Below, in pieces: positions 1 to 49,497 of a DNA stretch of 49,497 bases. Location of the stretch: the IMG/VR virus record IMGVR_UViG_2660238070_000012, positions 1 to 49,497 of that record; one strand, written 5' to 3'. Numbering within the stretch: position 1 is the first letter of the stretch; each line of letters begins with the position of its first letter. This DNA is from a virus. Taxonomy: Duplodnaviria > Heunggongvirae > Uroviricota > Caudoviricetes. The notes beneath the pieces were generated by a model, which saw nothing but the letters and a program-made list of their open reading frames with translations, did not search any database and was not told where the DNA came from. The position numbers and the translations under genes were made by a program.

Positions 1-1158
1 ATGCTCACCGTTAAGCAGATTGAAGCAGCAAAGCCGAAAGAAAAACCATACCGCCTACTCGATGGTAATGGCCTGTACCTTTATGTCCCTGTGTCAGGGA
101 AAAAGGTATGGCAGCTTCGCTACAAGATTGACGGTAAGGAGAAAATCCTGACCGTAGGAAAATATCCGCTAATGACTTTGCAGGAGGCAAGAGATAAAGC
201 ATGGACCGCGAGGAAAGACATCTCGGTTGGCATCGATCCGGTAAAAGCGAAAAAGGCTTCGTCTAACAACAATTCCTTTAGTGCCATTTACAAGGAATGG
301 TACGAGCACAAGAAGCAAGTCTGGTCAGTAGGCTATGCAACTGAACTTGCCAAAATGTTTGATGACGACATTTTACCCATCATCGGCGGTCTTGAGATTC
401 AGGATATTGAGCCGATGCAACTGCTGGAAGTAATCCGCAGATTTGAAGATCGCGGTGCAATGGAGCGAGCCAACAAAGCCCGCAGAAGATGCGGCGAGGT
501 TTTCCGTTACGCTATTGTCACCGGCAGGGCTAAATATAACCCGGCACCTGACCTTGCTGACGCCATGAATGGGTACCGCAAGAAGAACTTCCCGTTTCTT
601 CCTGCAGACCAGATCCCGGCATTCAATAAAGCACTGGCAACATTTTCAGGAAGTATCGTATCGCTCATTGCCACCAAGGTTTTACGCTACACTGCCCTAA
701 GAACGAAAGAGCTTCGTTCCATGCTATGGAAGAACGTCGATTTTGAAAACAGAATTATCACCATCGACGCCAATGTGATGAAGGGACGCAAAATTCATGT
801 GGTCCCGATGTCAGACCAGGTGGTTGAACTTCTCACTACGCTAAGCTCAATCACCAAACCAGTATCAGAGTTTGTTTTTGCCGGGCGCAACGATAAGAAG
901 AAGTCAATCTGCGAGAACGCGGTACTGCTTGTGATCAAACAAATCGGCTATGAAGGTCTGGAAAGCGGTCACGGATTCAGGCATGAATTCAGCACGATTA
1001 TGAACGAGCACGAATGGCCTGCTGACGCTATTGAAGTGCAACTGGCACATGCCAACGGCGGATCTGTGCGAGGGATTTACAACCATGCTCAGTATCTCGA
1101 TAAGCGCAGAGAAATGATGCAGTGGTGGGCGGACTGGATTGATGAAAAGGTGGAGTGA
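1..1158 (+). CDS. Tyrosine recombinase / phage integrase, P4/IntA-like family
   Basis: 385-aa ORF starting at the window edge. N-terminal AKPKEKPYRLLDGNGLYL motif and C-terminal GHGFRH...RGIYNHAQY catalytic region typical of tyrosine integrases. Clear paralog of the integrase at 39369-40544. Confidence 0.85.
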   Translation: MLTVKQIEAAKPKEKPYRLLDGNGLYLYVPVSGKKVWQLRYKIDGKEKILTVGKYPLMTLQEARDKAWTARKDISVGIDPVKAKKASSNNNSFSAIYKEWYEHKKQVWSVGYATELAKMFDDDILPIIGGLEIQDIEPMQLLEVIRRFEDRGAMERANKARRRCGEVFRYAIVTGRAKYNPAPDLADAMNGYRKKNFPFLPADQIPAFNKALATFSGSIVSLIATKVLRYTALRTKELRSMLWKNVDFENRIITIDANVMKGRKIHVVPMSDQVVELLTTLSSITKPVSEFVFAGRNDKKKSICENAVLLVIKQIGYEGLESGHGFRHEFSTIMNEHEWPADAIEVQLAHANGGSVRGIYNHAQYLDKRREMMQWWADWIDEKVE

Positions 1159-1302: not shown

Positions 1303-3381
1303 TTACTTATTAACCCAACCTGTAGCATTTGTGTTGCTTTCCTTTATATAAAGTACTGTATTTCCACCTCCATCAGAACGAGTGTAAATAGAACCAACTG
1401 GTGCTCCAACTCCGCTAGATGTTGGGTTGCCTTCTTGCCCAAATATCACAAGTGAGCTTTTATCTGTAGCTTGATTATTCTGTGTGGCTGATGTTCCAAA
1501 TGAAACATTCCCTATAAATGACACGCTCTTACAGGTTGATGTAGCAAATATACCAACTGATGGTTTATTAGTTGCAATGCCATCACGAATTTGATTTGAA
1601 CTAACAATTACATTTTCTGCACCAGAGTCAATTCGTATACCATTATGGTTGTTATCTGCGGTAGAAACCCCAGCTATAATGTTTGATTGAATAGTAACAT
1701 TTGAATATTTACCATTAATATGAATCCCATGCAGGGAAATATTTCTAAAGATGTTGCTAGAAATTACAACATCATGCGAAAAACCAGACCCTATAAATTC
1801 TTCTGCATTGGTTTCAGAAATCCATAAAGAACTTGATGTTCCTGAATCGTATTCATTATTAGAGATGATTGATTTGTTAATAAAATCACCTTTGAAAAAA
1901 CCGATTCCGCCTCTTGCTGTGTTTCCAGTGACAGTTAGTCCTGAAACCCATCTTGCGTCTACTGCATATGATTGAGACTCTGTAATAAACATGGAATTGT
2001 TGGATATTACGATATCTTCATGAAATGCATCTGATGTATCTGTATATGGATATGTAGGTGCAGCAAGAAGAATCGGGGATCTAACGCCTTCAAAATAATT
2101 GCCAACAATGCGCCCCCTCCTTGCCCCCTGTGGTTTTGATGATGATGGGAATGGGGTTACATGAACTCCTCGCGCGGTACTGTTATAGAAAGAGCATCCG
2201 CTAACCACCCAATCATACCAGTTGAAAACCCTTACCCCGGCAAAGAGCATTCCATCGAACCTGCAGTTTATGACCCTTATATTTTTGTCCTGATTCCCAT
2301 ATGAATTAGCATGGTTCCCAACCCCCGCCCCCCACGCCCCAAACCCAGTGGTGGTATTTTGTGGATTTGAACCAAAATAACAGTTATCAACAAGAACATT
2401 GATGTTTGGGTAATAATCGCCAAGAGATTCAATCCCCGGATCTAACTGTATCGCTTCTGAATAATTTCGGTTGGAAAGTGGTTTGAAGCCAAGAAACTTA
2501 CAGTCTCTTATAATCACCCCTTGCCCGTCAGCAATATCTACAGCATGAAAATCGACTACATCAAGAAATGTTACTCCAACAATAGAAAGATTTCTTGGTG
2601 AGGAGGCCGCAATGATGTCAAAAGGATCTGTAGGGTGGTCTTGTCCTCCTCCATCTAGTATTCCGCCTGTTATTTTAATGTTAGTGCCAGTATTAGGGTT
2701 TATTCTCAGCATAACGTCATTAGAAAAATTACGTTTAATGGTTACGCCATCAGTCATCTTTAGGTGAGTATTTGATTTTATTTGCAACTCAGAAAGCAAA
2801 GTATATATGCCTGGTAGTGAAAACTGTAGTGTACCTCCTCCAATGCTATATATTGCATCTAGCGCAAATTGCAGAGCTACTTTATTGTCAGCATTCGATG
2901 GATGAGCACCGAAGTCAAGAACATCAATGATTTGTTGGTTCTTTTGGTGTTGAGTTTGATTTGCTGCTCCGGGGAATGGTTGTTTCACCGACACTAATTC
3001 ATCCCCATCACCATCATCAAAGGATGCCAACCTCTTCTGAAACTGATCAGGGTCATACTTCAGCACATTAGGAAAATAAAACTGCTGCGCACCACATGCA
3101 TCATAAACAGCCATAGAATGGCCTTGCACAGTTACGAATTTGGCAATCTGTCCGTTATATACTGGATACCCAGCGGCATTGATGACGATTGGCTGTGCAA
3201 CAGGAACGTGAGAACCATCTTCGTTATCAACATAGACCTGAATCTGGTTATCAGGATTTACCGGGTCAGTGTCAATTTTACCGATATAAATTTTGCCATT
3301 AGCTACGGCTTTAAAAGAACGCGCCATAGTGAAGAGTTGCGAAGGCATGCTCACTACAACATTGGCTGTAATGTCTGTCAT
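1303..3381 (-). CDS. Tailspike protein: P22 gp9-like head-binding N-terminal domain fused to a different beta-helix receptor-binding domain
   Basis: 692 aa. The first ~115 aa ([20 protein letters not shown]...[12 protein letters not shown]...NVLKYDPDQ) match the recalled P22 tailspike head-binding domain. The remainder is Gly/Asn/Ser-rich with repetitive beta-helix-like segments. Last gene of the late operon. Confidence 0.85.
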
Positions 3382-3528
3382 TTAATTTGCTCCAGATACA
3401 AGGAATCGCCGCAGCATTGCCGCAGTGATGCATTATTAATCAAAAAAATACGACCACCGTGGTCTTATTGAGGATGCAATCAGCAGATAATAAGATGCCG
3501 ATCCACTCACAAAAGCGAGGCATCAAGA

Positions 3529-3780
3529 ATGGGAAGAGATGACCCGCAATTTAATCTGCGGCTACCTTACGAATTAAAGGAAAAACTAAAACAGCGAGCC
3601 AAATCCAATGGCCGCTCTCTTAATTCAGAATTAGTTCAGATAGTGACTGATGCTGTATCAAAGCCATCCAAAATTTCAGGCTATCGAGACGATGCGGAAC
3701 GCATCGCTGATGAGCAGTCAGAGCTTGTTAAGAAGATGGTGTTTGATACGCTGAAGGATTTGTACAAAAAACCCACCTGA
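3529..3780 (+). CDS. mnt: Mnt-like ribbon-helix-helix repressor (Arc/MetJ family)
   Basis: 83 aa, near-colinear with recalled P22 Mnt (MARDDPHFNFRMP...NGRSMNSELLQIV...DAERLADEQSELVKKMVFDTLKDLYKK). Lies in the immI position between the ejection genes and the tailspike. Confidence 0.85.
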   Translation: MGRDDPQFNLRLPYELKEKLKQRAKSNGRSLNSELVQIVTDAVSKPSKISGYRDDAERIADEQSELVKKMVFDTLKDLYKKPT

Positions 3781-3879
3781 AGGTGGGTTAATTTTTGCAT
3801 TTACCTGGGCCATATTGACTACTTATAAAATGAGATCAATATTTAATCTCCCAATAACGGGTGTATGTTGAGGTATATC

Positions 3880-4059
3880 ATGGCGAAAAAACCAGGTGAA
3901 AACACAGGAAAAAACGGCGGAATATACCAAGAAGTTGGCCCACGCGGCGGTAAGAAAGACAATTTTGCAACCGTCAAGGACAACGAAAGGCTTCCACCAA
4001 CAACAAAGCCAGGTCATGGCTGGGTATTGGATAAGCGAACTCCAGACAGCAAAAAGTAA
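3880..4059 (+). CDS. Hypothetical small basic protein
   Basis: 59-aa ORF from the ATG at 3880, preceded by GAGG. The longer 3865 start lacks an RBS. No recognised motif. Confidence 0.4.
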   Translation: MAKKPGENTGKNGGIYQEVGPRGGKKDNFATVKDNERLPPTTKPGHGWVLDKRTPDSKK

Positions 4060-4072
4060 TAATCAAGCCGGG

Positions 4073-4438
4073 TCACTCCGGCTTTTTGATATGTCGCTCG
4101 CAGAACTCAACAAGCCTGCTCATTAAGTAGCAGTAAGTCTCGTTGGCTCTTCCTGGTTCAACATCAACACCTACCCTTGAGCAGATATCGAATGCCATGT
4201 GAGCGCACTCATGGGCAATAGTAGATAGTTTGCCATTGAACACGCCTATCACATGCAAAACACCATTCTCGCTACTCATTGTATGAGACGCTCCGTTGGC
4301 GTCCGAGTCATGCACGTCAACGCCAAGTTTTTGATGCAGGCGTTGCCATTCTGGAAAGTCTCTACAAAACACAATTGTACCGCTCTCAAAGAGCGGAACG
4401 AGCATCTTTGGTACGTTTCCAATGTTAACTTTTTTCAT
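4073..4438 (-). CDS. Hypothetical protein with HExxH motif (possible small zinc metallopeptidase)
   Basis: 121 aa containing IAHECAHMAF (HExxH). Divergently arranged with the lipoprotein gene. Confidence 0.5.
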   Translation of the reverse strand: MKKVNIGNVPKMLVPLFESGTIVFCRDFPEWQRLHQKLGVDVHDSDANGASHTMSSENGVLHVIGVFNGKLSTIAHECAHMAFDICSRVGVDVEPGRANETYCYLMSRLVEFCERHIKKPE

Positions 4439-4472
4439 GGTATCCTGCGCAAAACTAAGGAGAGTTAATTAT

Positions 4473-4958
4473 ATGAAAAAATCACTGTTAATTATCCCGC
4501 TTCTGCTGGCTGGGTGCGCAAAAGTAAGCGACTATCAGGCAAGTTGCGAGCAACGCTATCCAAAGCTTAGCGATATGGCTAATTGCCTTGATGCCAGCTT
4601 GAAGAACGACTCTCGCATGGCATCAGCACCAACACCTAAGCTGTATGTCCTTGCTGCGAAGATGCTCGGGCAAGGTGTCGATGAAGGCAAGATAAGTGAC
4701 ACACAGGCAAGACTTGAACTTCAGAATCTTTATGTTCAATTACAAAGCCAAGAACAAGCACAACAAATAGCACAAAGCCAAGCATTCCAGCAGGCTTTAT
4801 TGAATTATCAGGCTGTAAACACAATGCAAGCGATCGAGCAAAAAGCGCGCCAGCCTGTTATAACTCAACCTTACCCAACACGCGTTGACACATATACAAA
4901 CTGCAATTCAGGATTTGGAAACACGGTAACATGCAACAGTAGCAGTAATATCAGATAG
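4473..4958 (+). CDS. Lipoprotein (candidate lysogenic-conversion / superinfection-exclusion factor)
   Basis: ATG at 4473 preceded by AAGGAGAG. Signal peptide MKKSLLIIPLLLAGC with lipobox LAGC. Gln-rich coiled region. Opposite strand to the late operon. Confidence 0.6.
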   Translation: MKKSLLIIPLLLAGCAKVSDYQASCEQRYPKLSDMANCLDASLKNDSRMASAPTPKLYVLAAKMLGQGVDEGKISDTQARLELQNLYVQLQSQEQAQQIAQSQAFQQALLNYQAVNTMQAIEQKARQPVITQPYPTRVDTYTNCNSGFGNTVTCNSSSNIR

Positions 4959-4971
4959 TTATATCTTATTT

Positions 4972-6819
4972 TTATTGCTGTTCTGCTGTAATTTGGCTTG
5001 AAAGTATAGGGCGTATCGCATTTGCAGCATTATTTAGCGCTCTTTCATAGGCTGGTGTTCCTGCTTTGGTGTTTGCCAAACGTAAGAGAGCATTCCTTGC
5101 TGCTTTTGACTCATACAAGCGCATCATTGCACCGAAACCAGCCTCAAGCCCCATTGATACGCCAAGAGTCGCAGTTGCGCCAATCGTCCTTATCCTGTTG
5201 GCTTGCGATTGCCCCGTCTGAGTTACTACATTTGCGGTGTCTGACCTTGCTGTTTGCTGTAGAACTTCATGAAGAGAATCAAGCTCTTTCATGTGCTTTC
5301 CAGAAAAAATAGTGTTGTAAATTTCACCGCCTGACTGAGATTTCAGCTTATTAACTTCAGTGATGAACTTGGCTGGAGAGTCACCGGCCTTTTCCGCTAT
5401 TTTGCTGACATAAGCTGCACGCATAGCATCTTTCCCTTTATTATCCAATGCGCTCCAGATTCGTTTCACGTCAGATGGTTTTCTGCTTAATACAACGGTA
5501 TTTATAAGTTCAGGACTGGCTTCACTGCTTGCCTTGTTGAGCTTGTTAGCAATGTTTTTATTAAGCACCTTATTATAAATGTTTGCATAATCGGAATTTG
5601 CTTTAAGGTATTTTGCTGCGTCTGATGCACCGAGGTTTTTTGCAACTGCGTTACGAAGATCTTTTGACATTGCATTCTCTACCATATTGGTAGCTGCTTT
5701 TGCCTGGTTTGGGAAGACCATAGCATCTCCCTGAACATTAGATCTAAATGCTGTTCTGTGCTGACGCAAGAGATCAAACGTAACATCCAAATCAGTTGCA
5801 GGGTTTGCTAATTCTTCACGTAGGTTACGCAAGGATGTAAGCAGGCTTTGATTGGCAGACGTCCCAAGCCGTTCCTGTCTTGCGATCGCTGTATTCAGAG
5901 CATTCATGGTATTTGTGGTATCAACTGCGGCATTACCCATTTTATTGGTGACGTCATTGATAACAGCGCCAGCGGCATCCTTCCGCCCCCTTAACGTGGT
6001 GGTAAGAGATTTCACCACATCATCAGGGTTGTACTCACCAAAACGGTCAAAATAATTACTTACCAGCTTACTACGCGTTGCATATTGCTCCGCTCGCTTT
6101 GAGCCTGTCCCGAGCAAAGCCCCCTCGGCATCCTGAGTTAGGCCGCGAGTGAAAGCATTTTTCGGCGGGATAACATCAGATGTCATTGGTGTCACGCCCA
6201 TCGATTCTGATGTGGCAATTTTCTTCGCCACTTCTGGCGCAATATCACCTTTTATAGCCGTTATTCCACGCCCTATTCCCTTTGCTGCTGCGGAAAGAAC
6301 CCCCTGAGCGGCAAGGTTAACTCCGGCATTTTTAGCTGCATTTTGTGCGAAATCGCCTTTCTGATTTGCGGCCTCTGCCAGTGATCCAATAGCCATGCTT
6401 CCTGCCGTTCCAACTCCTGGAACTAAATACCCGCCAATTGTTTCTCCAGCTTGCGCATAAGGGTCTGTTGGTCGATCGACTGGACGATAGACATCGTCCA
6501 AAACCTTGTGGCCACCAAGCCCCTGGCTGATTGCATTAATCAGACTTGCGCCGCCCTGCAATACGTCAAATGGTATGTTTACCAGACCACGACCAGCCTG
6601 TTCCGCAATTTGCCCTGCACTTTGACCACCAGTGAGCCAATCGCCAGCTTGTTGCATCAATGATGGTTCTTCCCGTGTTGGTGCATTATTGGCCTGATTA
6701 ACTGTTTGTTGCTGAACAGCCTGACCAGCAAAATACTCATCAATGGCGGTGCCAATATCTTCGGTGCTCGTACCATCAGGAAAGGTAAATGTCTTACCGT
6801 TTGCAGTTACTTTCATCAT
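4972..6819 (-). CDS. Ejection (injection) protein, P22 gp16-like
   Basis: 615 aa (P22 gp16 is ~609 aa). Position in P22 gene order after the gp20-like gene. Gly/Ala-rich. Confidence 0.75.
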
Positions 6820-22363: not shown

Positions 22364-22650
22364 GACTTAATCTTCCCCTCCTTCAGCAGTATCGCCTGCG
22401 TCCTGATCACGCCTTCGAGGTGGTAAAGTCTGGCGTCTTTGTTGTCGAGATTATGGGTGCGTCGGTCGATCTCCGCGTGGCAGTCACTACAAGCCCATGC
22501 ACCGATCAGGTCGTCAGGCTTCATTCCCGTTCCGCAAATTCCAGCCATCCGGTAATGTGCCAGAACTGTAGTTTCAGGATTACCATTGCATACGCCGTAA
22601 ATACGTACCTGGCATTCTCTGCCGCGCGCTTCTTTGCGTAGGTTAGCCAT
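22360..22650 (-). CDS. Cys/His-rich nin-region protein (YbcO/DUF1364-like)
   Basis: 96 aa with multiple Cys/His (CQVRIYGVC...CGTG...CSDCHAEID). Nin-region position next to rusA. Confidence 0.55.
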   Translation of the reverse strand: MANLRKEARGRECQVRIYGVCNGNPETTVLAHYRMAGICGTGMKPDDLIGAWACSDCHAEIDRRTHNLDNKDARLYHLEGVIRTQAILLKEGKIKS

Positions 22651-23372
22651 TAAGCAGCCTCCCCTGTTACTTTCAGCATTCCGTTATCGAGCAGCTTTCT
22701 GGTCAGCCACTGTTGACCACGCCCGGTGATTTTTGTGGTGAACGATATCTGTATTCCGTGATTTGTGTTGACCGCTGTTTCTTTCACTGCGAAATAGCCA
22801 CGATCCATATATTCCTGCATTGGCACATTGCGCCGGGAACCTGAAGCAATAAGGATTTTGTGATCGCGCATCCACGCAAACAGTTTGTTTGGACCAATAC
22901 CAACAACCTTTGCAAAGTTTCCAATCAAAATTCCACTGGCCTCGCCAACGCGATCGGCAAACTCAACTTTAGGTGCGGCAATTGCGAGCTGGTTTTCCAG
23001 TTGCATTTTCTGCTCAGCAAGATCAGCAGCAAGGCGCAACGCTTCTGGTAGCGTTTTGGGGATATTAACCGCAGTTTCTTCAAGCTCTCGCCAACGGTCA
23101 ACAAGACGAGCGGTGAATTCCGGCGACAACTGGGCTACAACGACAATACTGTCTCGCTTACCTTGTTCGCCCTCAAAAACGTAAGCCTCTACGCCACGAA
23201 GTAATCCTAAGTTATTGATTTTTTCGAAAACCACCATTGGGGGATTTCGGATCACACCTCGAGCCGCCAGTCGTTCAATAGATTGTTTCACCTTGTCATG
23301 ACGACTTCCCACCAACTCAGCGATTTCAATGCTTGTCATTTTGATGGCATTGCCATTCATTAACTCATTCAT
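22650..23372 (-). CDS. Phage antirepressor / regulatory protein (Rha-like N-terminus, KilA-C-like C-terminus)
   Basis: 240 aa. N-terminal winged-helix-like segment (TSIEIAELVGSRHDKVKQSIERLAARG) and C-terminal region typical of antirepressor KilAC domains. Family assignment by pattern only. Confidence 0.65.
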   Translation of the reverse strand: MNELMNGNAIKMTSIEIAELVGSRHDKVKQSIERLAARGVIRNPPMVVFEKINNLGLLRGVEAYVFEGEQGKRDSIVVVAQLSPEFTARLVDRWRELEETAVNIPKTLPEALRLAADLAEQKMQLENQLAIAAPKVEFADRVGEASGILIGNFAKVVGIGPNKLFAWMRDHKILIASGSRRNVPMQEYMDRGYFAVKETAVNTNHGIQISFTTKITGRGQQWLTRKLLDNGMLKVTGEAA

Positions 23373-23547
23373 CGTCTTCTTCCTCGTACATTGAGCTATT
23401 CGGATCGCTCATCAGTTCTGCGCAGCAGTGCTCACACACGTGAACTTCCAGCACATGCAGCTTCTGACCGCAGTTAGCGCACGTTAAAGCCCGCTCGACG
23501 CTTTCTTTCTGGTATTGAAGGGATTGGGATGGGCTAAGCATTAACAA
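23365..23547 (-). CDS. ninF: NinF-like zinc-finger protein
   Basis: 60 aa, near-identical to recalled lambda NinF ([51 protein letters not shown]). Confidence 0.8.
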   Translation of the reverse strand: MLMLSPSQSLQYQKESVERALTCANCGQKLHVLEVHVCEHCCAELMSDPNSSMYEEEDDE

Positions 23548-24484
23548 CCTCCATACAAACTTTCACGAATGCCGTTGCTACTTCTGCATTGATTGCGTTT
23601 CCATATCCAATAATTCGCTGATCTTGATTGCGCTTTGCCATTCTTCCCAGTGTGGACTTGCCTCGTCCCAAGCTTTTGGCAATGCCATTAACCATCGGGA
23701 ATGAGCCGGGTCTAACTGGACGATATTTTTCATCTCTACAGTAAAGCCAGTCTGCATCTCTCCAGAAGCCGTTAACCGGTAATGGGTACATAGCTTCACC
23801 GTCCCGGGAAGTTTCAAGCAGATTCTTGGGGTTCCGCTCTTGTCTTTTCCGCTGTAGCAATGCGTTGAACCTGTTGCATCGTTCGCTAAAGGAGTTTGCC
23901 ATCCAGCTAGTCTCACGCATCCAGATAGGTTCTGAATTCCCCTGCGTGTCTCTGGCTGAAAGTTGATATTTGTCGTTGGAGTAGGCCACCCAATACAATC
24001 GCTGCCTGATGTGCGGAGAACCGAAGCCCGCAGCGCAAATATCGGTACCTGCAGAGGTGTAGTTCGCACCTTCCAAGTCAGTTTGTACAAGGTCGAGCCA
24101 AGCGAGGCCGTCTGCGCTTGCAACCTGTTCGCCAATAACGATGCCAGGATTGCATTTTTCAATAAGCCAGAAGAATGCCGGCCATAAGTGCCGCTCGTCA
24201 TCAACCCCTTTTCCTTTGCCTGCCGAGCTGAAAGGTTGGCATGGGCAACTTCCTGTCCAGATACTCTTGTTGTCTGGCCATCCTGCCTTTCTAAGTGCAT
24301 AGCTCCAAACTCCGATTCCTGCAAAAAAGTGGTGCTGGGTAAATCCTCGCAAATCACCTGGTGTGACATCTTCAATACTCCTTTCATCTACATAACCGGG
24401 GGCAATTTCTCCAGCGTCAATTAAGTTACGCAGCCATTGCGCTGCATACGGATCTATTTCGTTGTAATACGCAGTCATCGTCAT
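23534..24484 (-). CDS. DNA (cytosine-5)-methyltransferase, orphan
   Basis: 316 aa from the ATG at 24484 (GAGGAA RBS, coupled to ninE stop). Motif I FAGIGV, motif [12 protein letters not shown], motif VI-like GEQV. No adjacent restriction endonuclease gene. Confidence 0.8.
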
Positions 24485-24657
24485 TTCCTCGCACGATGTC
24501 TTAGCCACCGGATATCCCACAGGTGAGCCGTGTAGTTGAAGGTTTTTACGTCAGATTCTTTTTGGATTGGCTTGCGTTTATTTCTGGAGCGTTTCGTTGG
24601 AAGGTATTTGCAGTTTTCGCAGATGATGTCGGTGAAACTTCGTATCTGTCGTCTCAT
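24481..24657 (-). CDS. ninE: NinE-like protein
   Basis: 58 aa from internal Met: [58 protein letters not shown], matches recalled lambda NinE. Confidence 0.8.
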
Positions 24658-43611: not shown

Positions 43612-46299
43612 TCACTCAGGTTCAGCGCTTCCCAGTACCTGTGTATTGAACTGGTACACACGTTTAAGCCCTATTTCTGGCAGGCGAATGCTGTTTTGCG
43701 TCCGGCCATCTTCACCGGGTTTCAGCCAGCCCGCGTCCACACACAACCTGGCCACCTTACGCGAGTCAAATCCCTTACAGATCTCCTTCCAGCCTGACGG
43801 GAGAACGTAGAACGTCACAACCGGCTCTGTCACGTTGTCTCCTTTATCGACTTTTCTGAATCCCATCATTGAAACAGGCCGGTTCCTGTCGTCATTCCAG
43901 TCAGCAAACCGACTGAACTGATTACGCGTCATGAAGTCCCGAACCTGTTCAAGTGCCGCTTTATCTTCCTGATTAGCTGTATGGCCCCGGTCAGCCATCC
44001 ATGCAGCCAGACAGCTTTGAGCGGCACGAAAGGCCTCTCCCTCCGGCCATCCTGTGATGCCCGCTTTTGTGGCCAGCTCCCCGGCCATCGCAACCAGAGC
44101 AAAACGGGTAACAGCCCGGCCAACCTGATTCCCGGCATTTTCCGGCGTCAGCCTTCGGGTATACTCTTTCAATAAGGCTTTCGCCTGACTGGTCAGTTCC
44201 GGCAGATCAGCGGTCAGGCAATACAGCCAGTCGCGGAATGGTGCACCATGATAATGCGCTACGTGCTGCTCAAGATGCTCAGCCAGGGTTTTCCCGCTAC
44301 TGAAGCCATGAAGTTCTTCAAACACGCCATACTTGCCCGAATCGCTTGGGATCTGGATCATTCTGACCTCAACCCCGGCATACGTACGTTCCCCGGCGCT
44401 TGCCGCATGCTCTACCAGTGACAGTTCCCCGGTAGACAGAAACAACAGATTCCAGCGGTTGGTTTCCCTTACCGAACCATCTGTTCTGGCTCTGGCTTTG
44501 CCCTGCCCGTTAGCCAGCATATAAGCGATATTTCCCGCCTCCCTGCCGTCAACCTCCCGGATTTCATCCAGCATCAGCGTGGCATCATTGCGGCGGCTCG
44601 CCGTTCCTTCTAAGGCATTCCCCGTCGCCCGCCACGTATGCCAGAAATCTGTTCCACCACATACTGATGCAGCCACTTTCATCGTCGTGGTTTTACCGTC
44701 TGTGGATTCCCCTTTGAGGTGATAACCTCCACCGCCGATACCAACCAGTTTCAGAAGGGGGGCAGCAAATGCCAGACTCACCGCAAAGGCAAGACGGGCA
44801 TTCTTTATGCAATAACGGCCTATATTTTCACGCCAGCCCTCTGATGTGCCGCTGACACGAAAATCACGCCCCTGCACACTCGATGTTTGTAAGATGACTG
44901 ACTGGGCTTCGCGCCCTATCACTTCATCCTGGAGAACGTAAACCCCGCCGTGCCAGCCAGTTTTATTCACACAGGTTACTTTTCTGTCCGGTTTACACAG
45001 CGAGATATATTCCATCAGGAATGCTCTGGCCATGCCGTTAATGTTGATGTAAGAAAGCCCGTTAACCAGCAGAACGCGGCGCAGTTCTTCCCCGCTACCG
45101 CCCAGCATCTCCATCGGCATTGCCCATTTACGGCTGTTTCCGTTGGTATCTTCCCATTCCAGCAAACGCCCGTAATTACTTCCATCAGCATCACTGGTGA
45201 TTGCCGTCACCCGCAACGGACTGCAAATTTTGATATTACGTATCTCTGTATCACCATCAGACTTATTAACCAGCTTGTCGTACCACAAATATTCTTTTGT
45301 CAGCCGGAACCCTTCTGGTAAACGGGTCTGCCCTTTGCCATGCAGCGTCATTTCTTCACGAAAGGCATCTCTCGCCCGTTCTTTCCCCACTTCCTGCCGA
45401 TAATCATCCCAGTCAGCCTTATGGCGTACCGGAGGGAGCGTTACCCAGCCATCCACCGCTTTGGCGGCTTTCTCTGCCTGAATACGCCCGGTGTTTTCTT
45501 TGCCGTCAGCCAGATCATTATCTCCGGCCAGAATGATCCGGGTTTCCGGCCAGCGTTTTCGGATCTGCTCCGTCACCTTCAGTAAATTGGTGGCAGCGAC
45601 AGCCGCCACGATCCATCCTTCAGTCAGCAGACTGACGGTAAGCGCCGTGGCAAAACCCTCAGTGATAATCACCTGTTCAGGTGTTTCAGCGGGTATATCG
45701 GTCAGGGCAATGAATGCGCCAGACAGCTGGCTACCGGGCAGCAGACTTTTATCCCCGTCAGGATTGATAAGCTGGCCACCAGTAATATTCCCGGAAATAT
45801 CCGTCAAAGGCAGCAGTAATGAACCGGTGGAAAATGTTATTCCGGCCAGATTCAAAGGCTGTGACAGCAAGGGAAGTGAATACCCGTGTAAGCTCTTATT
45901 TGTCAGATAGACCGGCTCACCATTGCAGGACTGCTGTCTGAGTCTGGTATATCGCTCCGCGCCCGCTTCTTTTCCTGCGGCCTTTTTCCTGGCTGGCAAT
46001 GCGGGCTTCTCCTGTATTTCTGGTAATGCAAGCGCCTCAGATACCATCCCGGCGACTTCTTTTATCTTTCTTCCTGTCACCAGACGAACCAGATCAAGAC
46101 CATCGCCATGACCGCACTGATTACAAAACCACGTCCCTCGCCCCGCTTTATCGTCCAGTCGAAAACGATCTTTTCCACCACAGGCAGGGCAAGCCCCATG
46201 ATGTCCTGCGGACGGTACTTTAATACCTAATGCTGACAGGATATAAGGCCAGCGCCCAATTGCAGCTCCGGAAATCGTGGATACAGACGGTGTTTTCAC
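43612..46299 (-). CDS. Primase-helicase, P4 alpha-like
   Basis: 895 aa. N-terminal zinc-binding primase motif (CPACGGKDRFR...CNQCGHGDGLD), Toprim-like region (IILAGDNDLADGKENTG), C-terminal helicase Walker A (LKGESTDGKTT). Confidence 0.85.
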   Translation of the reverse strand: MKTPSVSTISGAAIGRWPYILSALGIKVPSAGHHGACPACGGKDRFRLDDKAGRGTWFCNQCGHGDGLDLVRLVTGRKIKEVAGMVSEALALPEIQEKPALPARKKAAGKEAGAERYTRLRQQSCNGEPVYLTNKSLHGYSLPLLSQPLNLAGITFSTGSLLLPLTDISGNITGGQLINPDGDKSLLPGSQLSGAFIALTDIPAETPEQVIITEGFATALTVSLLTEGWIVAAVAATNLLKVTEQIRKRWPETRIILAGDNDLADGKENTGRIQAEKAAKAVDGWVTLPPVRHKADWDDYRQEVGKERARDAFREEMTLHGKGQTRLPEGFRLTKEYLWYDKLVNKSDGDTEIRNIKICSPLRVTAITSDADGSNYGRLLEWEDTNGNSRKWAMPMEMLGGSGEELRRVLLVNGLSYININGMARAFLMEYISLCKPDRKVTCVNKTGWHGGVYVLQDEVIGREAQSVILQTSSVQGRDFRVSGTSEGWRENIGRYCIKNARLAFAVSLAFAAPLLKLVGIGGGGYHLKGESTDGKTTTMKVAASVCGGTDFWHTWRATGNALEGTASRRNDATLMLDEIREVDGREAGNIAYMLANGQGKARARTDGSVRETNRWNLLFLSTGELSLVEHAASAGERTYAGVEVRMIQIPSDSGKYGVFEELHGFSSGKTLAEHLEQHVAHYHGAPFRDWLYCLTADLPELTSQAKALLKEYTRRLTPENAGNQVGRAVTRFALVAMAGELATKAGITGWPEGEAFRAAQSCLAAWMADRGHTANQEDKAALEQVRDFMTRNQFSRFADWNDDRNRPVSMMGFRKVDKGDNVTEPVVTFYVLPSGWKEICKGFDSRKVARLCVDAGWLKPGEDGRTQNSIRLPEIGLKRVYQFNTQVLGSAEPE

Positions 46300-46706
46300 A
46301 GCAGCACCTCCTGACCTTCCGGCTTCACAAATTCAAAACCTTCGGGTAGTTCGCCATCAGGTGCTCCGAAAATAATATCCCGGTAAACCTCACGCATCTC
46401 TGTGACACCAAAAACTGACAGGCGAATATTTTCTGACATAAAGCCTGGTTTAAGCATTTTTTCCAGTTTCTCTGCGGCCAGTATGCAACCAGCATCAGCC
46501 CCAAACTCATTCACCCACGGCATTTCAATATGGTAAATAATATTACTCACCACTTTTTCGTGGGAGAGTTCTATTCGTTCGCCATCTTCAATATAAACAG
46601 GTTCATTATGAACACGCACCATTAAGGAAATGAATGCATCAGCAATGTAGTAGCGTAAGACTGCTGTTCGTAAAGCATGCGCCTTTAAATTTTGATTATT
46701 ATTCAT
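46296..46706 (-). CDS. Hypothetical protein upstream of the primase (epsilon position)
   Basis: 136-aa ORF translationally coupled (ATGA) to the primase gene. Confidence 0.5.
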   Translation of the reverse strand: MNNNQNLKAHALRTAVLRYYIADAFISLMVRVHNEPVYIEDGERIELSHEKVVSNIIYHIEMPWVNEFGADAGCILAAEKLEKMLKPGFMSENIRLSVFGVTEMREVYRDIIFGAPDGELPEGFEFVKPEGQEVLL

Positions 46707-46935
46707 CGCGCATCACTCCCTTAATTGTGCTGGTTTCCTTAACAACGCCATCCAGTTGTTCGGCAATACAGGCCACTAAAGCCGCAGCGCCTTCCGCTGA
46801 AACAGTTCTCGCTCCATTCACTGTGGGCACGGACAAGACCTCTGCAAGAAACTCACTGGCCAGTGCCGCCCGTAACAGACGACTCTCCCCCTGTTCACTC
46901 AATATGCAGCCTTGCTTAAAATTCATGGATTTCAT
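46699..46935 (-). CDS. Hypothetical protein
   Basis: 78-aa ORF coupled to the downstream gene. Confidence 0.45.
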   Translation of the reverse strand: MKSMNFKQGCILSEQGESRLLRAALASEFLAEVLSVPTVNGARTVSAEGAAALVACIAEQLDGVVKETSTIKGVMRDE

Positions 46936-47135
46936 GCAACCACCTCCCCGGCTCTTTTCACAGGGATACGGGCAGCAAAGCTCAGGATAAATTCAGTGGC
47001 AAGTTTAAGGCGTGCAGCATGCTCGCATTCTGCGATTACACGCACAGGGCGTGGACGGGCATCACGGTCTGTACGGCGGACAGCCAGAAAGACAAAGGTA
47101 AATTCAGGGTGAGATAAAGCAGGGACTGTAGCCAT
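46932..47135 (-). CDS. Hypothetical small protein (possible DNA-binding regulator)
   Basis: 67 aa from the internal ATG at 47135 (MATVPALSHPEFTFVFLAVRRTDRDARPRPVRVIAECEHAARLKLATEF...). The longer listed ORF runs through a structured non-coding region. Confidence 0.4.
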   Translation of the reverse strand: MATVPALSHPEFTFVFLAVRRTDRDARPRPVRVIAECEHAARLKLATEFILSFAARIPVKRAGEVVA

Positions 47136-47146
47136 AATGGCAACCT

Positions 47147-47413
47147 CCTTCAGATAGCGGGTAACGCTACCACCGGAGTTCCTACGCTCATGGGTGGTAG
47201 CCCAGACGGGGGTAGGAATACCGGCTCTGAAGGATACCGGCCAGCCCGAAAGCTGCCCCGCCTGGACTACCATAATTCTGATGATGTGGCGTAAAAAATA
47301 AAAAAATACAATCAGCCACCACACCATAAATTTTAGGTGAGTCAAAGCTGCGACACAAAAAAACACGCCTAGCGCGTGTAGTATCGCCTTCAGATAACAC
47401 GGGTTCCTACGCC
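47147..47413. promoter_or_regulatory. Structured leader with two direct repeats and one inverted-complementary segment (candidate antisense-RNA control region)
   Basis: CCTTCAGATA..GGGT...TTCCTACGC occurs at 47147-47187 and 47387-47413. A partially complementary segment GTAGGAATACCGGCTCTGAAGG lies at 47212-47233. An internal hairpin GCTACCACC / GGTGGTAGC is at 47165-47201. Confidence 0.4.
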
Positions 47414-47609
47414 CGGCTGCCGATTTTGCGGCAACCTTTAAACTATATCCCGCGCATTCCTGGTGAGGCAAGAAATTTATAACCGAAAACTGATCATTGC
47501 CTGGATTAATTAACGCTGGCATGCTTAAGCCTCTGCTTAAAAATAGTTCTTCATTTTTCCTGATGCTGTAAACGAGACCCGCCTCTGAGCGGGTCTTTCT
47601 GTCGCTAAG

Positions 47610-48614
47610 TCAATCCGCAAACGTCAGGGTGCACTCATCAACAGCCGCGTACAGTTCAGGTTCACCGAGTGCATAACCTTCATTGCGCAGGTAGGAATGC
47701 ACGTATTCACTGCTTTCATCATCAAACTCAGCACGAAACCAGCGTGTTATCGCCTGAGTGTAAATATGCAGATTATCCAGCGTCGTTACTGCCAGACGCT
47801 TACCCGGCATAAACGGGGGAATAAACGCAAAGCGGCCAGCAACAGAACTTGTAGCCATCTGTGCCGCATTCACATCAGACGGGCGGTCTGCGGCATTAAA
47901 TAACTTCAGGCGTTGATGTGCTGCCAGCTCTGCCCCAACCAGTACAACCAGACGAGGATCTTCACGAAACTGCTCAGCAATAAGCTCTGTAATCAGATGG
48001 TTGGCCAGAGCATCAATATTTTTCCAGGTGCCAGTCTCTCCCAGAGTGACAGGCTCAGAGATGATTTGCTTTCCGTTCCCGTAGGCTTTCGCCAGTGCAT
48101 GCCAGCCAATATTGACATCCTCGCCTTTTTTATTGATTTCCGGGTTTGTAGTATTTGCAATCGACACACCGTTGAAACCGACCCGCAGCATGTCCAGCGC
48201 ATATGCCTGGGCAAAAAAGCTCTCAACCGTTTTCTCAAACTCATCCGGCACGCCGGTATGGTAAATATGAGACATATCGGAATAGCTGATCCGGGCGCAG
48301 GTATCCGTCTCTGTCAGAAAGAACTCCGTACCATTGATTGCCATTTTTTTGTGGAAACGGCCACCATCCACACGTCCGGTATACAGTTCACTGGCACCAA
48401 TATTGACGGCATTACCTGACACGGCGTTAACATCACGTAGGGTAATATTTTTAATAAGCCACCCGGATTCCAGAATTGAGGTACGCAGTATATTTTCAGT
48501 AGGTTCGCTTAATGCAAAGCGTCTGTTTGATTCTTCCTGATAGTTAGTGCCAGTGACGAATTTATTATGATAACGACGTGCTGCGTCCGGCCTTTCAGTT
48601 TTGAAGGCATACAT
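47610..48614 (-). CDS. Major capsid protein homolog, P2 gpN family
   Basis: 334 aa. GFNGV, GW, IDAL, EDPRLVVLVG and LDNLHIY align with recalled P2 gpN motifs (GFNGV, GW, LDAL, EDPDLVVIVG, LENLSIY). Based on recalled sequence only. Confidence 0.6.
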   Translation of the reverse strand: MYAFKTERPDAARRYHNKFVTGTNYQEESNRRFALSEPTENILRTSILESGWLIKNITLRDVNAVSGNAVNIGASELYTGRVDGGRFHKKMAINGTEFFLTETDTCARISYSDMSHIYHTGVPDEFEKTVESFFAQAYALDMLRVGFNGVSIANTTNPEINKKGEDVNIGWHALAKAYGNGKQIISEPVTLGETGTWKNIDALANHLITELIAEQFREDPRLVVLVGAELAAHQRLKLFNAADRPSDVNAAQMATSSVAGRFAFIPPFMPGKRLAVTTLDNLHIYTQAITRWFRAEFDDESSEYVHSYLRNEGYALGEPELYAAVDECTLTFAD

Positions 48615-48636
48615 AGTTTTTCACCTTTTTAAGTAT

Positions 48637-49497
48637 TTAAGAAAAGATTTTATTTTTGTACTCAGTAACCAGATTGTATTTCATTACATGCTCAACATAA
48701 TCCCGGTCACTTACGACTGAACGTAATACATAATTATCTGCTCGATAGTACTCCCTGTAAGCCATAGCTCTTGCCATTCCACCGTTATTTAATACATAAC
48801 GATCAGTTGGAACGCTACAACGACTAATAATTTCACTCACGGAATCAGATAAAGACTTGAGTGCATCAGTAATAAATTTAATATCACGGACAACGTCACT
48901 GTCATTAAATACAGAAATAAAATCAGCAGGGATCTGGCCGGATTGAGGAAATATATTCAGTAAACGCTTATCGATTCCCTTCCCAATGTAGTTTCCTTCA
49001 TCGGCCAGTACTCCCGGCAAAAGCTTGATCGTGCTCAATCGACTATGTTGTTCATTCAACCGGGAAACAGCCAGATGGTAATACCGTTCAGCATCCGCTC
49101 GTTCAGCATGCCCCATTTTATTCGTTTTGGCTTCAGCAATGCTACTGACGCCGTTTTTTGAGAATGTGCTTTTCCATGCAACTTCCGCATTTGTCACTTC
49201 ACGCTGCCGGAAAGATAACTCTTCCTCTTCCTGACGACACAACTGGGCATAACGGCTCAGGAGCAGGTTGATCTCATTCGCCACAGTTTCCGTATCAGGT
49301 ACTGTTAACCCCGTAAGTGAATACAGCTTTTCACCTTTAGCTCGCAGCTTATTCAGTGAATATATTTCAATAATACGCACAATACAGGCCGTGTCGCTAT
49401 GAGTCTCTTTAAATGATCTTACTTTGTAACTATCTAACACCGACACATGTTCGTTCTTAATTGATGCCAATTTCTTCTTAAAAACATTGTCAACCAT
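48637..49497 (-). CDS. Hypothetical protein (start coincides with window end)
   Basis: 286-aa ORF upstream of and co-oriented with the capsid homolog. Does not resemble recalled P2 gpO scaffold. May be N-terminally truncated by the window. Confidence 0.5.
   Translation of the reverse strand: MVDNVFKKKLASIKNEHVSVLDSYKVRSFKETHSDTACIVRIIEIYSLNKLRAKGEKLYSLTGLTVPDTETVANEINLLLSRYAQLCRQEEEELSFRQREVTNAEVAWKSTFSKNGVSSIAEAKTNKMGHAERADAERYYHLAVSRLNEQHSRLSTIKLLPGVLADEGNYIGKGIDKRLLNIFPQSGQIPADFISVFNDSDVVRDIKFITDALKSLSDSVSEIISRCSVPTDRYVLNNGGMARAMAYREYYRADNYVLRSVVSDRDYVEHVMKYNLVTEYKNKIFS

Follow-up and report, generated by a model that had tools for sequence, protein, structure and literature searches.

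The interval between positions 3381 and 4971 of the IMG/VR virus record IMGVR_UViG_2660238070_000012, whose full stretch of 49,497 nucleotides is referred to here as the window, is the "ant moron" of a P22-like (Lederbergvirus) Escherichia coli prophage, a known accessory pocket bordered by the tailspike gene on one side and the ejection-protein gene 16 on the other. We read this ant moron, with a probability of roughly 60%, as a mosaic of three independent modules and not as one coordinated pocket. The modules are the repressor gene mnt with a predicted operator and promoter, the pair formed by orf59a and hkcC, the latter encoding a small protein with an HExxH motif, and a lipoprotein gene situated in the slot that is held by sieA in P22. 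The features that delimit and make up the interval are as follows.

1303-3381, minus strand: tailspike gene (gene 9 homolog), an open reading frame (ORF) of 692 aa with matches to Pfam Head_binding (E = 1.3e-65) and Beta_helix.
3452-3464, unstranded: Omnt-like palindrome GACCAC-C-GTGGTC (GACCACCGTGGTC), at the position homologous to P22 Omnt.
3468-3496, plus strand: Pmnt-like promoter TTGAGG-17-TAAGAT, in the same register as P22 TTGAGA-17-TATCAT, read from the sequence.
3529-3780, plus strand: mnt, encoding an 83-aa ribbon-helix-helix repressor of the Gln6 class (Pfam Arc and Repressor_Mnt).
3770-3789, unstranded: bidirectional intrinsic terminator at the end of mnt, with an 8-bp stem and T-runs on both strands.
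3815-3843, plus strand: promoter-like site TTGACT-17-AATATT upstream of orf59a, matching the consensus at 9/12 positions.
3880-4059, plus strand: orf59a homolog, encoding a 59-aa Lys/Gly/Pro-rich protein 98% identical to P22 ORF59a (phrog_3202, E = 7e-31).
4065-4084, unstranded: bidirectional terminator common to the convergent orf59a and hkcC, found by scan and corresponding to tORF59A in the HK620 annotation.
4073-4438, minus strand: hkcC homolog, 121 aa, matching HK620 hkcC (phrog_1365, E = 1.7e-39).
4380-4466, plus strand: promoter and 5' region homologous to PsieA, with the Shine-Dalgarno sequence CTAAGGAG; the stretch overlaps the start of hkcC, which runs on the opposite strand.
4473-4958, plus strand: lipoprotein gene, encoding a 161-aa precursor with lipobox LAGC and Ala at +2 (phrog_6067, E = 2.9e-109).
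4972-6819, minus strand: ejection-protein gene 16, a 615-aa ORF resembling P22 gp16; the right edge of the moron.

The window opens with an integrase gene (1-1158, plus strand), which is followed by the tailspike gene, the final gene of the late operon and the left edge of the moron. The remainder of the P22-type late operon, including gene 16, gene 20 and gene 7, lies farther along on the minus strand; gene 16, annotated in E. coli genomes as a DNA ejection protein of the P22-gp16 family, is the last late gene ahead of the moron. Four genes are located between them (mnt, the orf59a homolog, the HExxH gene and the lipoprotein gene), and the flanking of these variable genes by a gp16 homolog and a Head_binding tailspike identifies the interval as an ant moron. 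The same architecture between genes 16 and 9 is observed on comparison of gene order in P22, HK620 and phage 720R6; hkcC, orf59a and mnt recur in P22 and HK620, and the lipoprotein gene recurs in 720R6 and Gally. In no related prophage were these genes seen outside the stretch from gene 16 to gene 9. The three genes named in the original prediction, mnt, the HExxH gene and the lipoprotein gene, were found where it had placed them, and comparison with P22 upholds its assignment of the slot to the sieA/immI position. Its list lacked the orf59a homolog, the terminators at 3770-3789 and 4065-4084, and the Omnt-like palindrome, and its placing of the HExxH gene next to mnt does not hold, as orf59a intervenes.

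The name "ant moron" and its description as a hypervariable region date from 2008 (Villafane, Casjens and colleagues, PMC2629481), where ten types were distinguished in sixteen genomes, hkcC and 59a were listed as P22 genes of unknown function, and mnt without ant was recorded in ST64T and ST104. The mnt of phage L has likewise been described as an orphan (PMC8022706). The ant-moron arrangement as a whole, the mnt-only state, hkcC and orf59a are therefore already on record. P22 DNA is 97% identical to the window over 3682-4466, a stretch that takes in the last third of mnt, orf59a and an intact hkcC, and the allele differs from that of P22 only by the loss of arc and ant and the replacement of sieA by the lipoprotein gene. 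Searches with tblastn revealed no homolog of Arc, Ant or SieA in the whole 49.5-kb window, where Arc merely cross-matches mnt, and the start of mnt is separated by 147 bp from the tailspike start codon at 3381; the absence of arc and ant, as originally predicted, is borne out, and the arc and ant genes under Mnt/Arc control that characterise P22 immI are missing here.

The interval is 100% identical to a prophage of an E. coli O25b:H4-ST131 genome, and 1124 of the 5426 complete E. coli genomes share some part of it. The named genes are real and not chance ORFs; about 100 clusters are homologous to the lipoprotein and 517 to the HExxH protein.

The distribution of the genes carries the mosaic reading. 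Eighty IMG/VR loci encoding Mnt relatives were classified together with reference loci; these are the best 80 of more than 470 matches and the sample is biased towards the query. In every classified locus hkcC and orf59a are both present or both absent, and hkcC is seen with sieA, with hkcB or with an empty slot. The lipoprotein is never found together with SieA or HkcB. Loci of Morganella, Serratia, Yersinia and Klebsiella, and the E. coli morons of the 720R6 type, have the lipoprotein gene but no hkcC; in Morganella and Yersinia the lipoprotein gene is the sole moron gene.

The lipoprotein has the N-terminus MKKSLLIIPLLLAGC, which provides the signal peptide and lipobox of an Lgt/LspA substrate. 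The mechanically called ORF begins at 4422; the true start is placed at 4473 by alignment of homologs and by the Shine-Dalgarno sequence AAGGAG at 4457-4462. Among 26 homologs, Gly14 and Cys15 at the end of the lipobox, Ala16, Cys25, Cys38 and Cys154 are invariant, and Leu12 is nearly so. Four cysteine positions beyond the lipobox are conserved. A helix rich in Gln and, at the C-terminus, a variable hairpin bearing two of the protein's cysteines are further features, and the protein is devoid of transmembrane segments apart from the signal peptide. The structural model is of moderate confidence for an N-terminal helical bundle and poor elsewhere, and its fold matches are uninformative. According to the Lol sorting rule, Ala at +2 predicts sorting to the outer membrane. 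The N-terminal C-x12-C pattern recalls the LprI/DUF1311 lysozyme inhibitors; no Pfam match supports the likeness, and it was dropped.

The roughly 100 clusters of the family come exclusively from Enterobacterales, none has a known function, and a profile search identified no relatives outside Enterobacterales prophages; the hosts include Xenorhabdus, Pectobacterium, Yersinia ruckeri and Morganella. In each of the five genera checked (E. coli, Morganella, Serratia, Yersinia and Klebsiella) the gene is convergent to the 3' end of gene 16, and the gap from stop to stop is 9-17 bp in the latter four. All known occupants of the sieA slot are envelope proteins. SieA proteins of types A-C are multi-pass inner-membrane proteins with the motif FxRYPxEAxxFNK; P22 SieA gave no tblastn match in the window.

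The sequence upstream of the gene is that of sieA. Positions 4380-4466 are identical to P22 at 83 of the 87 positions directly upstream of sieA, and identity between the window, P22 and HK620 extends to the end of the Shine-Dalgarno sequence; right after it, the three diverge into the lipoprotein gene, sieA and hkcB, respectively. The swap just past the Shine-Dalgarno sequence places the lipoprotein gene behind a copy of the putative PsieA; the gene would have been exchanged as a cassette for sieA (P22) or hkcB (HK620). In P22, exclusion is complete when sieA is supplied in single copy with just 85 bp of upstream DNA, which contains the putative PsieA (Leavitt et al. 2024, PMC10883804). The conservation of this upstream region makes expression from the prophage a well-grounded inference, and the lipoprotein is probably expressed in this way; it is a credible prophage-expressed envelope protein, as the original prediction supposed for opposite-strand genes of this kind. 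It would be made by the prophage, sorted to the outer membrane and active at the envelope. Exclusion of superinfecting P22-like phages is the most likely and most economical of its possible roles, and we put it forward tentatively, at somewhat less than even odds.

The main rival to exclusion is that the lipoprotein is a host-fitness or virulence moron comparable to lambda Bor, conferring serum resistance or envelope stability. The predicted outer-membrane location and prophage expression would suit such a role, 186 of the 5426 complete E. coli genomes (~3%) have the gene, and strains of human origin, an ST131 isolate among them, carry the same allele. However, the protein resembles neither Bor/Iss nor TraT nor any Pfam family, its gene is found only in the P22-like sieA slot, next to the ejection genes, across Enterobacterales of very different lifestyles, and it is mutually exclusive with SieA. 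We regard this role as unlikely, though it is the best placed of the alternatives considered here.

An unrelated lipoprotein was noted in the same region of phage vB_EcoP-720R6 (locus L001, 3495-3914). This 139-aa protein (MKRIIGVVAGAILLSGC...) is encoded on the late strand, replaces hkcC/orf59a, adjoins the same sieA-slot lipoprotein and has no Pfam match. The 720R6-type allele is a common second E. coli ant moron, and about ten further loci have the same spacing from mnt to the lipoprotein gene.

The second module consists of hkcC and orf59a. P22 itself contains an intact, unannotated copy of hkcC with 97% DNA identity. The gene lies on the late-operon strand and the protein has no signal peptide. 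Its HExxH motif is HECAH, at residues 76-80; His76, Glu77, Cys78 and His80 are invariant in 20 close homologs, and Gly49, His76, Glu77, His80 and Glu100 in 66 homologs of 23-73% identity. The signature of an HExxH motif followed by a glutamate 20 residues downstream shows the ligand conservation of zincins. A profile search of 1.84 billion representative proteins yielded 517 clusters, mostly stand-alone proteins of 110-140 aa. The AlphaFold2 model (pLDDT 89.3) displays a four-stranded sheet, one helix, the HExxH helix (residues 71-88) and a helix at 100-116 starting from Glu100. Foldseek comparison with BFVD matched it to many small uncharacterised phage proteins with TM scores up to 0.82, some of them named SprT-like or metalloprotease, and one family member matches Pfam SprT-like at E = 1e-4, below the curated threshold. 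Sequence-profile and structure searches of Pfam, NCBIfam, PADLOC and the Protein Data Bank (PDB) returned nothing significant by which to assign a family. The modelled fold and the conserved residues fit a cytoplasmic, minimal SprT-like zincin, metallopeptidase-like and placed in no curated family.

The partner of hkcC is orf59a. The 59-aa product is weakly YjzC-like (Pfam YjzC, E = 0.0013, under the curated cutoff). The two genes are convergently paired in five independent contexts. In siphovirus prophages of Klebsiella, Rosenbergiella and metagenomes, a homolog with 57-62% identity to HkcC is encoded on the late strand, with the tail chaperone gene on one side and the tape-measure gene on the other. 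A 59-aa gene with 76-78% identity to orf59a follows it in each case and converges on it. The pair is also found in two contexts beyond siphovirus tail operons and holds at 43-44% HkcC identity; the small partner is lost from distant members with ~34% identity or less. Owing to this recurring pairing and the strict co-occurrence, hkcC and orf59a, and not hkcC and the lipoprotein, constitute the functional unit. The scan detected no minus-strand terminator between gene 16 and hkcC, and hkcC would be made from the late transcript during lytic growth; late lytic expression is our expectation from the gene arrangement. orf59a would be expressed separately from hkcC. The site at 3815-3843 is suggestive only as its candidate promoter: it is the sole 9/12 match in 3250-5100, and shuffled sequences average 2.7 such matches, so it is not above chance.

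A different reading of this pair is that of a prophage-expressed defence or toxin-antitoxin-like system, a protease with a small inhibitor, in place of a late lytic function. The tight co-occurrence of the two genes, their mobility between unrelated phage types and the promoter-like site of orf59a on the non-late strand can all be cited for it. Nevertheless, the genes are convergent and form no operon, hkcC points the same way as the late or structural genes around it in all phage contexts seen, the members at ~34% identity or less do without the small partner, and none of the four moron proteins matches a PADLOC-DB defence model at E up to 0.1. The defence reading is, in our estimate, improbable, though less so than the alternative readings of Mnt and of the pocket as a whole that are discussed below.

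An HkcC-family member of ~34% identity was also observed in an SU10-like phage contig (locus L100, 4001-4366), just upstream of the large terminase gene, which it overlaps; it has no orf59a partner.

The third module is mnt with its control region. The Pfam matches of the protein exceed the curated cutoffs and correspond to the N-terminal Arc-like ribbon-helix-helix domain (Arc, residues 3-50, E = 2.8e-22) and the C-terminal tetramerisation helix of Mnt (Repressor_Mnt, residues 53-80, E = 2.2e-18). Its identity to the P22 repressor is 76%, and from 3682 on the DNA identity to P22 rises to 97%. This position is a mosaic breakpoint inside mnt: codons 1-51, the DNA-binding half, are saturated for synonymous change relative to P22, and the tetramerisation half retains the 97% DNA identity. 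The location of the breakpoint indicates that the specificity domain and the operator appear to have been exchanged as a unit.

Alignment to the arc-mnt intergenic region of P22 gives P22 Omnt as GGTCCAC-C-GTGGACC, and the window has the predicted palindromic operator expected of the Mnt family just upstream of its own promoter, ending 2 bp before the -35 hexamer of the Pmnt-like sequence. A perfect 6+1+6 palindrome is not rare by chance, and the argument for an operator is drawn from position and conservation. The Pmnt-like promoter has 8/12 matches, under the threshold of the consensus scan; its P22 counterpart was taken to be Pmnt. No further Omnt-like site is present in the window at up to 2-3 mismatches. 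It had been suggested that Mnt half-sites might be found upstream of an antirepressor gene at 22650-23372 or elsewhere; none lies near that gene. The gene itself (minus strand, inside the nin-region operon) encodes a protein with Rha and ANT/KilAC domains and is not a homolog of P22 Ant, which gave tblastn E = 0.11 over 37 aa.

Repressor type and operator type are correlated across the classified loci. Every locus with a Gln6-type Mnt (N-terminus MGRDDPQFNLRLPY) is without ant, and in the majority of them (A)AGACCAC-N-GTGGTCTT precedes the ATG by an unvarying 62 bp, with constant arms and C, T, G or A as the centre base. The His6-type Mnt (MARDDPHFNFRMP) is that of P22; ant is linked to it almost always, one locus being scored without ant, and GGTCCAC-N-GTGGACC is present in nearly all His6 loci. 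Serratia has a third, distant type, likewise without ant, whose palindrome is AGTACCATTATGGTACT. In the Serratia prophage (locus L007, 5640-6010) only 17 bp, devoid of a terminator, separate mnt from the lipoprotein gene behind it, and the two may form an operon; Mnt would then also drive the downstream lipoprotein gene. Residue 6 is reportedly a specificity determinant of Mnt, from the work of Youderian, Knight and Sauer. The tracking of operator type by repressor type is the pattern expected of a working pair with shifted specificity.

Selection has preserved this unit. Among ant-less alleles mnt shows dN/dS of 0.07-0.09 (dS ~0.5, dN ~0.04), its reading frame is intact in nearly all sampled copies, and an alignment of 19 different intergenic sequences from ant-less alleles shows conserved operator arms, with the two hexamers of the promoter conserved or improved (TTGTGG / TATGAT). 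Judged from these sequence comparisons, the ant-less Mnt is a distinct specificity class that is selected and operator-matched, and the earlier view of an orphaned Mnt gives way to that of a repressor with a predicted cognate operator and promoter under purifying selection. The distinct Gln6 class together with this strong selection implies that Mnt does something other than control ant. Mnt would bind the palindrome upstream of its own -35 hexamer and control its own transcription. The operator would also sit on the sole route of transcription from the moron and the late operon into the tailspike gene, and Mnt may gate read-through into gene 9 rather than act on an antirepressor. Our best inference is that the role of Mnt is autoregulation, possibly with gating of transcription towards gene 9. 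On the minus strand of this allele the palindrome resembles a weak terminator followed by a T-run; the T-run is not conserved in other alleles and is regarded as incidental.

One further proposal assigns Mnt a function in trans, as an immunity factor that represses ant of superinfecting P22-like phages having the same operator and spares the prophage from induction. Mnt of a P22 prophage represses ant on superinfecting genomes, and the maintenance of repressor and operator specificity by selection would be in keeping with such a function. On the other hand, no Gln6/GACCAC-type operator is linked to ant among the best 80 of more than 470 matches, a sample biased towards the query. We consider this proposal improbable.

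The original prediction took the whole interval as one coordinated conversion pocket, in which Mnt has no target and the HExxH protein and the lipoprotein are a divergent, prophage-expressed pair acting together on the cell surface or against superinfection. Several of its observations stand: the start codons of the two genes are divergent and 34 bp apart, the slot is that of sieA and immI, and the HExxH motif, whose conservation was to be checked, is strictly conserved in homologs. Its description of opposite-strand genes inside the late region applies to the lipoprotein gene, on the plus strand; the HExxH gene is on the late strand and is present in P22 too. In P22 the same 5' end of hkcC already faces sieA, and the divergent layout is a legacy of that arrangement. 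The proposed coupling of the HExxH protein to the lipoprotein is largely refuted by the distribution data, namely the loci in which the lipoprotein occurs without hkcC, the occurrence of hkcC with sieA, hkcB or an empty slot and in siphovirus tail clusters, and the conserved partnership of the late-strand, signal-peptide-less hkcC with orf59a. A coordinated pocket is very unlikely on these grounds. Least credible of all is a non-functional Mnt left over from a decaying immI region, a possibility raised in the phage L genome paper (PMC8022706) and in line with the deletion of arc/ant and the unrecognisable Pant hexamers, since the strong purifying selection at dS ~0.5 and the nearly always intact frames speak against decay, the operator arms and promoter hexamers persist while the neighbouring sequence and the operator centre vary, and the likewise ant-less Serratia type keeps its palindrome and heads an apparent mnt-lipoprotein operon.

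Several points weigh against our own account. The leftward hexamers equivalent to Pant are degraded, and neither inspection by eye nor the scan gave convincing hexamers of a Pant-like promoter, which leaves Mnt without an evident target for repression in the direction of gene 9; on its own promoter Mnt may act as an activator or as a repressor. All promoter assignments derive from consensus matches or from homology to P22. The lipoprotein has no match in Pfam, NCBIfam or PADLOC, and its link with exclusion comes down to slot, promoter and envelope location.

Taken one step further, the lipoprotein may found an unrecognised outer-membrane exclusion family of Enterobacterales and, separately, hkcC/orf59a may be a mobile late-operon cassette; these two readings are speculative and rather doubtful. 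The lipoprotein would replace SieA and block the gp7/gp20/gp16 ejection conduit of P22-like phages, or their outer-membrane step, from the periplasmic side, with the variable, disulfide-bonded C-terminal hairpin setting the specificity. The cassette may insert as a minimal zincin with a YjzC-like mini-protein into the late operons of unrelated phages.

Overall the region is ordinary P22 biology, holds no new principle and would not surprise a P22 specialist. What is added here is the operator-matched, ant-less variant of Mnt, the hkcC/orf59a linkage with the zincin signature, and the precise lipoprotein cassette swap. The literature had left open the function of the orphan mnt of the L/ST64T type, and the covariation of repressor and operator and the dN/dS values argue that it is functional. 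hkcC has been an "unknown" in P22 for ~25 years; its product now emerges as a small, conserved protein with a minimal HExxH...E signature, its gene is linked to orf59a, and predicted late-gene-associated expression is a testable hypothesis for it; we found no functional studies in the literature of hkcC, orf59a, the ant moron or SprT-like phage anti-defence proteins that cover these genes. The lipoprotein, representing a compact uncharacterised family, is a motivated candidate for a second, mechanistically different block of podovirus DNA delivery, and is the part of the region most worth an experiment.

Other features of the window include a C-5 cytosine DNA methylase gene in the early/nin region (23534-24520, minus strand; Pfam DNA_methylase, E = 4.6e-14) and a P4-like satellite element (43612-49497) beside the P22-like prophage. 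The following features belong to the P4-like element.

43612-46299, minus strand: DUF927/Toprim primase.
46932-47522, minus strand: Ash-family protein.
47190-47277, minus strand: C4 antisense RNA (81 bits).
47358-47435, minus strand: isrK (69 bits).

The modules can be compared with known systems. HkcC resembles SprT-like and minimal zincins in having an HExxH helix after a β-sheet, followed by a helix with a conserved glutamate; it differs from SprT-like proteins in its HECxH motif with several conserved cysteines, its length of only 121 residues and the lack of extra domains. Orf59a is similar in length to YjzC (PF14168) and shares the pattern G-x-Y-x-E ... PPT ... W, but scores 19.4 bits against a cutoff of 25 bits. 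Llp of T5, Cor of phi80/N15 and Ltp of TP-J34 are small prophage or early lipoproteins that act at the envelope against incoming phage and offer an analogy for the lipoprotein; they act on FhuA or on the tape-measure protein, neither of which is used by P22-like podoviruses, and they have no detectable sequence or fold relation to the lipoprotein of the window. P22 SieA (PMC10883804) and the lipoprotein have the slot, the orientation, and the promoter and Shine-Dalgarno region in common, and both are envelope proteins encoded beside the ejection genes that SieA targets. SieA is a multi-pass inner-membrane protein, whereas the lipoprotein is mostly helical and predicted to be secreted, lipid-anchored and resident in the outer membrane, and the two share no sequence similarity.

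ST64T, ST104 and L, as well as ST160 and SE1, have mnt directly beside the tailspike gene without arc and ant, as in the window, and the mnt-tailspike junctions of ST160 and SE1 are 92-93% identical to it in DNA sequence; these phages differ in having other small genes, or none, in the sieA slot. The closest likeness is to the immI/ant moron of P22 (sieA-hkcC-orf59a-mnt-arc-ant), with which the interval shares its position, its flanks, the sequence upstream of the sieA slot and the geometry of operator and promoter. P22 has arc, ant and the sar target, which the window lacks, and sieA in place of the unrelated lipoprotein gene; the N-terminal domain of Mnt and the operator half-sites are Gln6 and AGACCAC in the window, as opposed to His6 and GGTCCAC in P22.

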